From IMG/VR virus record IMGVR_UViG_2778261462_000003: a stretch of DNA of 5,347 nt. One strand, 5' to 3'. Source of the DNA: a virus (Duplodnaviria; Heunggongvirae; Uroviricota; Caudoviricetes). Below, piece by piece: positions 3,090 through 5,347 of the stretch; the stretch's first letter is position 1, and each line of letters opens with the position of its first letter. A program made the position numbers and the translations under genes. Below the pieces are notes generated by a model, which did no database searches, was not told the DNA's origin, and saw only the letters and a program-made list of their open reading frames with translations.

Positions 3090-3373
3090 GCGAGATTAAT
3101 TATCAGGAAGGGCATGAAACGGCGGGGCAAGCAAAACCAGTGGCATGGCGATATCGCTACGTGAAAAAAGGCGTTACGGACTTTCAGGGGAAGTAGTGGT
3201 CTGGTGACTGGAAATATGTACCGAAAAAAGAGGATTGTAACGACAGGCCGAACTATCAAATTCAGGCCTTATTCACTGCCTCACCAGTCCCAGTTACATC
3301 AGAAGAACTGGTTAAAGCTGTGCACTTTTATGAACAACTAAAACGCGAAAATCCACCAACATCCGGCAACTAG
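3086..3373 (+). pseudogene. 95-codon ORF interrupted by an in-frame TAG (ORF C)
   Basis: ATG at 3086, MSEINYQEGHETAGQAKPVAWRYRYVKKGVTDFQGK, TAG at 3194-3196, then 58 in-frame codons (WSGDWKYVPKKEDCNDRPNYQIQALFTASPVPVTSEELVKAVHFYEQLKRENPPTSGN) to TAG at 3371-3373. Looks like a real small phage protein with one nonsense codon. Family not recognised. Confidence 0.35.
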
Positions 3374-3627
3374 ATTAATGGATTAACTATGTCGGTTAAA
3401 CGACCAGCCAACTGAAAAAGCGGAAACCTGATTACAGGTTGCCAGATAAGGCAATGAGCTACCTGGCGCGGAACGGACTGATAAGTATGGGGAATGTTTT
3501 ACGATGAACCTTTAGACTAAAGAGTTTGTAACGCTATGTAAGTGATTTTTTCTGGTTTAGATATTTATATGTCCGGCCAAATTGAGGTGTGTTTAAATGT
3601 AATTGCACATTGATTGTAGGAGGAATA

Positions 3628-3807
3628 ATGAAAAACGCATTGCAGTTTTTGTTTGTTGCGTTCTGGTTGTTCGCATCATGTATGCCCATCATCTTCACAG
3701 CAAGGTATATGGAAAAAGTTGATGTTTTGATATTAATATTTGGATATATAAATGCCCTTTTTTTAGGGGTGTTCATGGCGGTCATGTGCATTGAATACTG
3801 GCGGTAA
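3628..3807 (+). CDS. Small predicted membrane protein, 59 aa, two hydrophobic helices
   Basis: ATG at 3628 is preceded by AGGAGG (3619-3624), a strong Shine-Dalgarno at good spacing; the track ORF 3589-3807 is in the same frame. Product MKNALQFLFVAFWLFASCMPIIFTARYMEKVDVLILIFGYINALFLGVFMAVMCIEYWR has two hydrophobic segments. Upstream 3540-3620 is strongly AT-rich, with TGTAAT at 3598-3603 as a possible -10. Confidence 0.5.
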   Translation: MKNALQFLFVAFWLFASCMPIIFTARYMEKVDVLILIFGYINALFLGVFMAVMCIEYWR

Positions 3808-3908
3808 ATACAGCGAACTCCATTGGTTTAGTTGGATATTTACTGTGCTGGACAAAAACGGTTTGCGGGGAAATCTTAGTTAAGTAGAATGACTGCGGGT
3901 GCTTGAGG

Positions 3909-3944
3909 CTATCTGCCTCGGGCATGGACACCAACGGCAGATAG
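3909..3944. repeat. Perfect 9-bp inverted repeat separated by 18 nt
   Basis: CTATCTGCC (3909-3917) and GGCAGATAG (3936-3944). The left arm overlaps a competing 5-bp stem, GAGGC (3905-3909) with GCCTC (3915-3919), so the two structures are mutually exclusive. Confidence 0.4.
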
Positions 3945-4037
3945 AGAAAAGCCCCAGTTAACATTACGCGTCCTGCAAGACGCTTAACATTAATCTGAGG
4001 CCAATTTCATGCTAGACACATGTAGGTTAGCCTCTTA

Positions 4038-4053
4038 CGTGCCGAAAGGCACG
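4038..4053 (+). other. Second GC-rich hairpin with GAAA tetraloop
   Basis: CGTGCC (4038-4043), GAAA (4044-4047), GGCACG (4048-4053). Same architecture as the hairpin at 2715-2730. Not followed by a T-tract. Confidence 0.3.
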
Positions 4054-4084
4054 GAGAAGCAGGCTATTGTTAACACCAAGCTGT

Positions 4085-4117
4085 AATGTCCCCTTTGAAC
4101 CATTCTAAAATGTCCCC
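4085..4117. repeat. Direct repeat AATGTCCCC (two copies, 24 bp apart) just upstream of the transposase; possible IS terminal or binding site
   Basis: AATGTCCCC at 4085-4093 and 4109-4117. No inverted copy (GGGGACATT) is present in 5261-5347. Confidence 0.3.
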
Positions 4118-4140
4118 AGACAATTCTCTGGGGGATTTTT
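4114..4140 (+). terminator. Terminator-like hairpin that sequesters the transposase ribosome-binding site
   Basis: CCCCAGA (4114-4120), loop caattc, TCTGGGG (4127-4133), then gATTTTT (T-run 4136-4140). The 3' arm contains GGGGGA (4130-4135), the only Shine-Dalgarno-like sequence for the ATG at 4142. Such folding is a known way IS elements block activation by read-through transcripts. Confidence 0.4.
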
Positions 4141-4141
4141 C

Positions 4142-5260
4142 ATGATCAAAGAGACTGTTACGATGAGTCATAAGGAACTCCACCGACTTCAGATTATTCA
4201 GGAACAAGCTGCGGCACGCATTGGCATTTCTATTCGGCAGGTTAAACGTCTGGTGCAACGGTATAGAAATGAAGGGCCTTCTGGTCTGGTTTCCCACCGA
4301 CGTGGAAAGCGTCCTAATAATTCCTTTTCTACTGAATTCAGAGCAACAGTAATTTCACTCCTCAAAGGCCGTTACGCTGATTTTGGACCTACGTTTGCGT
4401 GCGAAAAATTGCGCGAGATACACGGTTTATCTTTATCCGTTGAAACTCTCAGAAAGTGGATGATAGAAGAGGGGTTATGGCGTGAACGCCGTCGTAAAAT
4501 TGCCCGTATATATCAACGCCGCATGCGACGACCATCTTACGGTGAACTGATCCAGATTGATGGCTCACCTCATGACTGGTTTGAAAATCGAGGCCCCAGA
4601 TGTACACTGATCGTTTTCATTGATGATGCCACCAGTGCGTTGATGGCGTTGCGTTTTGTGCCTGCTGAAACAACCCGGGCTTACATGGAAACCCTCCGGG
4701 GTTACCTTAATGATCATGTCGTACCGCTCGCTCTCTACTCTGATAGACACAGTATATTCAGGGTAAATAACCCAGAGCGGGAAGGTGAGCTGACCCAGTT
4801 CACTCGTGCGATAAAGACACTGGGCATCGAGCCAATCCATGCCAACAGCCCGCAGGCAAAAGGGCGGGTAGAGCGCGCCAATCAGACACTACAGGACAGG
4901 CTGGTCAAAGAAATGCGGCTTCAGAATATCAGTGATATTGAAACAGCAAATGCATGGTTGCCGACCTTTATTGAAGCCTATAACAACCGGTTCGCTACGT
5001 CGCCTCGTACTACTGATAATGCTCATCTTGATGTGCACCATTCTGAAGAGGAACTGGGTTATATCTTCAGCCTACAGGCGAAGCGCGTTCTGTCTAAAAA
5101 TCTCACTTTCCAGTACAAAAGCAGTGCGTTTCAGGTACGCAGTGAGGGCCGGGGATATCGACTTAGGCATTCGGTTGTTACTGTATGCGAGAACTTTGAC
5201 GGTGAAATTAACGTTCTGTATGAACCGCCCCGGGTTTCCTGGAGAGTGTTTTATCTGTGA
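4142..5260 (+). CDS. DDE transposase with integrase-core (rve-like) catalytic domain, IS481/ISNCY-like
   Basis: 372-aa track ORF. N-terminal helix-turn-helix-like region (GISIRQVKRLVQRYRNEGPSGLVSHRRGKRPNN), then the catalytic triad in its usual contexts: IQIDGSPHDW, LALYSDRHSIF and KGRVERANQTLQDRL. Family assignment is from memory of ISNCY/IS481-type N-termini (MS.KEL.RL.IIQ...GLV..RGK.SN). The stop at 5258-5260 may be premature if homologs are longer. Confidence 0.75.
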   Translation: MIKETVTMSHKELHRLQIIQEQAAARIGISIRQVKRLVQRYRNEGPSGLVSHRRGKRPNNSFSTEFRATVISLLKGRYADFGPTFACEKLREIHGLSLSVETLRKWMIEEGLWRERRRKIARIYQRRMRRPSYGELIQIDGSPHDWFENRGPRCTLIVFIDDATSALMALRFVPAETTRAYMETLRGYLNDHVVPLALYSDRHSIFRVNNPEREGELTQFTRAIKTLGIEPIHANSPQAKGRVERANQTLQDRLVKEMRLQNISDIETANAWLPTFIEAYNNRFATSPRTTDNAHLDVHHSEEELGYIFSLQAKRVLSKNLTFQYKSSAFQVRSEGRGYRLRHSVVTVCENFDGEINVLYEPPRVSWRVFYL

Positions 5261-5347
5261 ACTCAGGCTGCCAGATCATCGTTTCCGATGGAAGCATAAT
5301 AAGCTTTTTCTGCTTCTGCCGGAGGAGTATGGCCCAGCCTTTCCAGC

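Follow-up and report, generated by a model that had tools for sequence, protein, structure and literature searches.

Does the 59-codon open reading frame (ORF) lying directly upstream of a hok/sok locus in this prophage DNA encode a protein, and if so, of what kind? The window, by which we mean the whole stretch of DNA analyzed, is 5,347 nt long; coordinates refer to it, and features lie on the plus strand unless otherwise stated. The ORF (3628..3807) starts with an ATG at 3628 and ends with a TAA at 3805-3807. The start codon is preceded by an AGGAGG Shine-Dalgarno (SD) sequence at 3618..3623, with a spacer of 4 nt (AATA), and the 59-aa product reads MKNALQFLFVAFWLFASCMPIIFTARYMEKVDVLILIFGYINALFLGVFMAVMCIEYWR. 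The first-pass annotation had recognized this SD sequence, the ATG, and the length of the product, all of which we found in the sequence, and its description of the peptide as mostly two hydrophobic segments is confirmed by hydropathy and by an AlphaFold2 model with two helices.

As judged from its sequence, the window is a cryptic lambdoid prophage of the Qin type (DicA/DicC): between 128 and 5223, it matches the Qin prophage region of Escherichia coli ATCC 8739 at 99.96% identity. Upstream of the ORF, this strain carries, in order, dicA, dicC, a YdaT-family gene, an O-like replication gene, DUF977, a methyltransferase gene, and decayed small genes. The ORF is followed by a partial ISNCY transposase gene, ydfW, flxA, ydfV, relBE, hokD, rem, ydfU, and a Q-type antiterminator gene (ydfT). 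We take this middle part of the prophage to be missing from the Qin prophage of E. coli K-12. The ORF family occupies the rightward early ("nin") region, where it comes after the replication genes and DUF977 and immediately before hok/sok. The accessory prophage setting proposed in the first-pass annotation agrees with this location and with the base composition, as the ORF lies in an AT-rich patch (36-37% GC vs. 46%). The GC content is 0.355-0.385 across 3500-3899 and 0.372 in the ORF itself, compared with 0.46 for the window.

Several other features of the window were recorded. Positions 1-127 and 5221-5347 are the ends of IS3-family elements, which are absent from these sites in ATCC 8739; the right-hand one truncates the ISNCY transposase gene, and the source genome is IS-rich. 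The O-like replication gene contains five iteron-like repeats at 1022-1153, spaced by 23-24 nt and with the core TCAAAATG, followed at 1159-1194 by three 12-nt repeats ACAGAGAATACA. Together, the repeats at 1022-1194 resemble an origin of the lambda type lying within the initiator gene. Between 2738 and 3400, small nin-type genes, including a DUF7167 family gene, are broken by stops and frameshifts, as judged by comparison with phages 640R1 and 813R8 and with strain S1-IND-02-A; the adjoining 59-codon ORF is intact. A tRNA scan of the window found none.

The first possibility to be weighed is that the frame is open by chance, within the T-rich, AT-rich spacer between the nin-type genes and hok. 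Several properties of the window are compatible with it. The motif AGGAGG-N3-9-ATG occurs once in the window, for a mean of 0.30 in shuffled sequences, at least one occurrence being found in 51 of 200 shuffles; by itself, the SD-ATG motif is therefore not significant in this test. Neither is the length of the ORF in such an AT-rich stretch (P = 0.08). Hydrophobic "proteins" come free from T-rich sequence. Against a chance origin, the grand average of hydropathy (GRAVY) of the product is 1.27, above the 0.54 +/- 0.33 of shuffled sequences with the same bases and no stops (P = 0.011); T occupies 52% of the second codon positions of the ORF, compared with 38% overall. A longer form of 72 codons, starting from GTG at 3589, lacks an SD sequence, and we consider it unsupported, as the reading frame of the paralogue described below is closed by a stop five codons before its own ATG. 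The evidence from the window alone leaves the ORF unproven, and the proof of a gene rests on the comparison with this diverged paralogue.

An exhaustive HMMER search and a profile search identified a second subfamily, represented by the proteins P0037 and P0102: MRKILMYLCISIWIVISCVPIILTSEYLTEASIMALMFGHANALCIGVFISIIYIECWR. These are also 59 aa long and are 41% identical to the window protein in a gapless alignment, with start and stop shared. The second subfamily is present in 1,045 of 5,426 complete E. coli genomes, among whose listed carriers are the B2-type ATCC 11775, NU14, ABU 83972, NC101, and ST131, and there too the gene is unannotated in RefSeq. Its site is a prophage remnant between ttcA and uspF; a C-terminal remnant of DUF977 precedes the gene, and a hok 3' remnant follows it after about 70 nt. 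The two subfamilies share the gene order DUF977, ORF, hok. In many B2-type E. coli, this ttcA-uspF locus (L165-L172) is a strongly eroded lambdoid remnant in the Rac attachment region. It contains an integrase fragment, the DUF977 remnant, the 59-aa ORF, the hok 3' remnant, and fragments of an ABC-3 permease gene, and among these five frames solely the paralogous ORF is still complete. We rejected the idea that the diverged homologue (L162, L163) belongs to a degenerate symbiont; it is instead this widespread E. coli prophage remnant. We infer that the indel-riddled L163 is an error-rich assembly.

The two loci also share a 13-nt palindrome, CTTTAGACTAAAG at 3510..3522 in the window, just past the TGA (3505-3507) that ends the upstream gene of intact prophages. 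At the paralogous locus (L165, about 7877-7889) it reads CTTCAGTCTGAAG: both arms have changed and the symmetry is kept. Position 3510 is polymorphic. This palindrome may form a small hairpin or serve as a binding site for a protein.

The comparison of the two subfamilies provides the main evidence for coding. Their nucleotide identity is 59%, distributed as 58%, 70%, and 48% at codon positions 1, 2, and 3, respectively. At this divergence, the paralogue keeps the frame, the length, the start, and the stop, and of all frames the +1 frame alone is open in both subfamilies. We estimated pN at 0.35 and pS at 0.70 (Fisher p = 1.9e-4), which corresponds to a dN/dS of ~0.24, a rough value as it derives from just two independent lineages with saturated synonymous sites. 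Under simulated neutral divergence, the probability of encountering no stop was 0.023 and that of reaching an amino-acid identity at least as high as observed was 0.004; both conditions together had a probability of 3.5e-4. The flanks of the two loci require roughly 14 gap openings in ~340 nt, compared with zero in the 180-nt ORF (P ~6e-4). Hydropathy and T-rich second codon positions are retained in both subfamilies.

Polymorphism within each subfamily gives a more nuanced picture. Among the Qin-type loci, 8 of 180 sites of the ORF are variable, compared with 20 of 206 in the flanks; for the second subfamily, the figures are 0-2 of 180 and 14 of 600, respectively. In both lineages, the ORF thus varies less than the flanking DNA, which speaks for a gene. 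Seven of the eight variable sites of the Qin-type ORF are nonsynonymous and a single one is synonymous (37 distinct haplotypes from 161 loci), with conservative changes such as A16V, V31I, I37M, and Y40H among the variants. This ratio is compatible with a chance frame, and it also fits relaxed or absent selection in the present cryptic prophages, or young polymorphism. The lack of a RefSeq annotation and the confinement of the family to one species complex likewise speak for a chance frame. However, the shared frame, length, start, and stop of the paralogue, the dN/dS ratio, the neutral simulation, and the indel-free ORF amid indel-rich flanks argue that the frame has been held by selection on a protein. 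We therefore regard a chance frame as unlikely. The sequence comparisons indicate that ORF 3628-3807 is, or recently was, a selected coding gene, and we estimate at about 0.7 the probability that it is a real gene encoding a small membrane protein, a figure that covers no particular activity.

A different gene has been annotated at this site. The phage records PV340562, ON470612, and ON470619 annotate an antisense ORF of 85 codons, running from 3791 to 3534 on the minus strand, which is named "hornerin" twice and "hypothetical protein" otherwise. The antisense frame is open in the window, and a weak terminator-like hairpin is found on the minus strand at 3440-3425. However, no SD sequence precedes its ATG, and in the paralogue the frame contains two stops and shows a lower amino-acid identity than the plus-strand frame (18 vs. 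25). It is extremely unlikely that this ORF is the true gene of the locus, and its annotation is almost certainly a misannotation. The name "hornerin" is, in our judgment, an automatic mislabel.

DNA of the Qin-type ORF was found in 1,569 of the 5,426 complete E. coli genomes, every match being at least 95% identical. The ORF is dispensable for the host. The species representatives of GTDB yielded it from E. coli and Shigella only, and a tblastn search of phages and plasmids retrieved the same two subfamilies and no others. From these searches, the ORF defines a small family without a name, composed of two subfamilies and found only in E. coli and Shigella. It is present in records of inducible or complete phages (640R1, 813R8, and PhiR42_1) and is identical in one Shigella flexneri locus. 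Intact alleles dominate, four exact intact ORF sequences being each found on at least 1000 contigs. A homopolymer tract, T7-A-G4, at 3758..3769 within the ORF is a recurrent site of frameshift; the variants P0019, P0022, P0024, P0025, and P0028 end in ...GGVHGGHVH and are rare compared with the intact alleles. These frameshift alleles are either true slippage variants or assembly errors. Insertions of IS1, IS2, and IS3-family elements into the ORF also occur and are rare. As the loci were retrieved by peptide match, broken alleles are undersampled in these counts. No RefSeq record inspected carries a RefSeq/PGAP call of the ORF, and submitters to GenBank have occasionally named its product "hypothetical protein" or "membrane protein". 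A full-text search of the literature retrieved no mention of the peptide, and a recent preprint surveying Hok does not mention the upstream ORF.

The "downstream structured region" of the first-pass annotation, which had asked whether the gene always travels with it, corresponds to a hok mRNA leader with the sok region (3897..4067). It matches Rfam family RF01794 at 3897-4068 (104.1 bits, E = 1.3e-23). The inferred hok promoter, read from the sequence as TTGCGG and TAGAAT separated by 16 nt, lies at 3863..3890, outside the ORF module. In the intact locus of phage vB_EcoS-640R1, 89 nt separate the ORF from the hok leader, and the Hok coding sequence that follows is identical to HokD. The window leader aligns with this locus up to the hok ATG, where an ISNCY-family IS remnant (4068..5220) begins and severs the Hok coding sequence at its start codon. 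In ATCC 8739, the HokD coding sequence is found 3.3 kb downstream, after IS'-ydfW-flxA-ydfV-relB-relE. The 15-nt sequence GGAGAAGCAGGCTAT is present at both ATCC 8739 junctions (L001, 6654-6668 and 9967-9981), which identifies the window leader as the detached 5' half of the hokD locus. Conversely, the 3' half of the same locus seems to survive as hokD (relF), parted from its leader and from sok.

This proximity raises the possibility that the ORF is part of the hok/sok module, for instance, as a regulatory leader or a helper of Hok. Of the fetched loci, 130 had enough downstream sequence for hok adjacency to be judged, 128 of them with an intact ORF. Hok/sok adjoins the ORF in all but two of these 130, and the paralogue likewise lies beside a hok remnant. 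Downstream of the ORF, the fetched loci carry an intact hok in 71 cases, an IS-cut hok in 56, and another arrangement in two. The association is thus close when viewed from the ORF, but it does not hold in the other direction. About 2,750 E. coli genomes contain related hok loci (86-98% identity) without the ORF, in which homology begins only at 3850-3894, that is, at the hok promoter. Their upstream neighbors vary: a DUF551 gene lies directly upstream of hok in O157 prophages and a different 1-kb spacer is found in strain a15. In the ORF-less prophages L175 and L176, we found no positional analogue of the ORF upstream of hok. Furthermore, the hok mRNA begins ~90 nt past the stop codon of the ORF, from its own promoter. 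The ORF-less hok loci and the start of the shared sequence at the hok promoter indicate that the ORF and hok are separate modules, and a role of the ORF within hok/sok is very unlikely. The two happen to adjoin in this phage lineage; Hok is the known membrane toxin here.

The selected frame encodes a peptide with a simple design. Hydrophobic segment 1 (residues 4-24; 3637..3699), defined by hydropathy and the AlphaFold2 model, is either a first transmembrane (TM) helix or the h-region of a signal peptide. It is followed by the short polar loop ARYMEKVD (residues 25-32; 3700..3723), which is replaced by the acidic SEYLTEAS in the paralogue, and by hydrophobic segment 2 (residues 33-55; 3724..3792). 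AlphaFold2 places helices at residues 2-26 and 28-58, with a mean pLDDT of 74. The positions conserved between the subfamilies are W13, S17, C18, P20-I-I, T24, and Y27 in the N-terminal half. In the C-terminal half, they are L36, F38, G39, N42-A-L44, and G47-V-F49 of segment 2, together with I55, E56, W58, and R59. The positive N-terminus and the neutral-to-acidic loop suggest, by the positive-inside rule, a topology with N-terminus in, loop out, and C-terminus in. The conserved Asn and the spaced Gly residues of helix 2 suggest helix-helix association. We accordingly predict a protein of the cytoplasmic membrane, probably folded as a helical hairpin; the precursor of a lipoprotein is the possible alternative.

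The latter reading stems from a lipobox-like motif, L-F-A-S-C, at residues 14-18 (3667..3681), in which S17 and C18 are invariant between the subfamilies. Residues 1-17 would then be a signal peptide, signal peptidase II would cut before a lipidated Cys18, and a lipidated peptide of 42 residues with one hydrophobic helix would be left. PROSITE PS00013 asks for a Cys at 15-35 behind an N-terminus with K/R and an uncharged stretch. Both subfamilies satisfy it, with Cys18 and a K or R within the first seven residues, and the -2 position is limited to the allowed residues A, V, and I. Conservation is lower in the N-terminal 17 residues (5/17) than in the remainder (19/42). The lipobox of the paralogue (VIS-C) also passes the stricter G+LPPv2 and DOLOP rules. 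A lipoprotein precursor is therefore a real rival to the hairpin, PS00013 being satisfied by both subfamilies and the stricter rules by the paralogue. Nevertheless, PS00013 is matched by chance in ~5.5% of composition-matched random first helices. The window protein, with F at -3 (FASC) and Q6 in the h-region, fails the stricter rules, including the pattern [LVI][ASTVI][GAS]C, which VISC passes. The stretch after the lipobox Cys is usually polar in known lipoproteins, and the MPIIFT following Cys18 is hydrophobic. No match to the lipoprotein families of Pfam or NCBIfam was found. On balance, we regard the lipoprotein as rather unlikely and favor the helical hairpin.

How would such a protein be expressed? 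A crude consensus scan of 3300-4150 found no sigma-70-like promoter on either strand, and no plus-strand terminator was found around the ORF. Apart from the hok leader, Rfam contains no RNA family matching over or beside the ORF or its 5' untranslated region (UTR). The fold of 3505-3665 is no more stable than expected from shuffled sequences (z = 0.15), so a structured 5' UTR masking the ribosome-binding site was not found. A moron in the strict sense, the category raised in the first-pass annotation, is therefore not supported, a promoter and terminator of its own not being found; the base composition of the ORF does differ from that of its neighbors. Given the lack of a flanking promoter or terminator and the unstructured 5' UTR, read-through of the early-right operon on induction is the simplest route of expression. 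The ORF would be transcribed with this operon upon prophage derepression and translated from its good SD site. Strong translation, as proposed in the first-pass annotation, is inferred from this SD sequence. Position 3621 is polymorphic (A/G), the site reading AGGGGG in 14 of 37 haplotypes, where G-U pairing is still possible, and the SD sequence of the paralogue is weaker (AGGGA). In the membrane, the product would then adopt an N-in/C-in helical hairpin, its short loop facing the periplasm. Helix packing, either by self-association or by binding to a host membrane protein, may be mediated by the conserved polar or small residues: S17, C18, P20, and T24 of helix 1, G39, N42, and G47 of helix 2, and the E56-x-W-R end.

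The first-pass annotation had further proposed that the product is a membrane-depolarizing toxin or a superinfection-exclusion protein. Like type I toxins (under about 60 aa), the product is small and hydrophobic, at 59 aa and with the GRAVY value given above. A good SD site, the location in an AT-rich patch within a prophage, and the conserved Asn and Gly residues of helix 2, which could drive oligomerization, are also in line with such a role. T4 Imm, a small early protein with two helices by which superinfecting phage is excluded, provides a precedent. However, sequence searches gave no support to this proposal. Neither the window protein nor its paralogue matched any toxin, holin, exclusion, or defense family in Pfam, PHROGs, NCBIfam, or PADLOC. 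The only hit to any family in these collections, DUF4212 (E = 0.076, 13.9 bits for a cut-off of 30), was dismissed as generic helix similarity. A profile search of the PDB returned no match, and Foldseek against viral structures (BFVD) retrieved generic hairpins only (E >= 0.9), the best holin having an E value of 3. The antisense RNA and folded 5' UTR of type I systems were likewise not found, the hok leader being the only Rfam match at or near the ORF, in a search that would miss a new RNA family, and no promoter of its own for expression in the lysogen was found. Finally, thousands of genomes retain an intact ORF and show no obvious antidote, and its disruption by IS elements is rare. A toxin or exclusion function is accordingly improbable.

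Comparison with known small phage proteins leads to likenesses of design and not of sequence. T4 Imm (83 aa), like similar small exclusion proteins of the inner membrane, is a small phage product of the early genes with a pair of hydrophobic helices, but it belongs to another type of phage and shares no sequence or profile similarity with the ORF product. The class II holin or pinholin S21 of phage 21 (68-71 aa) is similar in size, with two helices and probably an N-in/C-in hairpin. Unlike holin genes, the ORF lies outside the lysis cassette, upstream of hok, ydfU, rusA, and Q; its C-terminal tail comprises four residues (EYWR) without a charged domain, and no holin of Pfam or PHROGs was matched. 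Hok/Gef proteins are small hydrophobic membrane peptides of prophages, and the ORF adjoins a hok locus. Hok has one TM helix and a periplasmic tail containing a Cys, whereas two helices are predicted for the ORF product; the Hok_Gef profile (about 50 aa, one TM helix) gave no match in Pfam or NCBIfam at E <= 1. Neither coupling of the mok type nor a folded leader was found at the ORF, and Rfam showed no antisense RNA resembling sok.

Among the small lipoproteins of phages are Cor (phi80/N15) and Llp (T5), which act in exclusion, and the spanin Rz1; the ORF product resembles these by its lipobox-like Cys18 after a positive N-terminus and a hydrophobic stretch. In contrast to these proteins, its would-be mature part is mostly hydrophobic and it matches none of their families. 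Its gene position also differs, Cor being encoded in the tail region and Rz1 in the lysis cassette. YdfD and DicB are small accessory proteins of the same prophage type and are annotated in the same locus, but they are unrelated in sequence to the ORF product; they are toxic, have described targets, in contrast to the ORF product, and are encoded on the other arm, in the dicB operon.

Our best guess is that the product is a membrane-acting accessory phage factor. A more specific proposal would make it the founder of a new class of prophage membrane effectors, combining a lipobox with two hydrophobic segments and missed by RefSeq in more than 2,500 complete E. coli genomes. Such an effector would act at the membrane as a modulator or antidote of the neighboring Hok, or independently as a new exclusion or toxic factor. 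We consider this proposal doubtful and unlikely to hold in that form.

Small membrane proteins are routinely missed in genome annotation, and this ORF is a good small-protein candidate. Together, its two subfamilies cover about half of the complete E. coli genomes searched (1,569 + 1,045 of 5,426); the reference pipeline leaves the gene uncalled, and phage records label the wrong strand. The reading of its neighborhood is also corrected, the structured region being a hok/sok leader separated from the HokD coding sequence. If the product truly acts on the membrane or on incoming phages, it would represent an added accessory function of Qin-like prophages.
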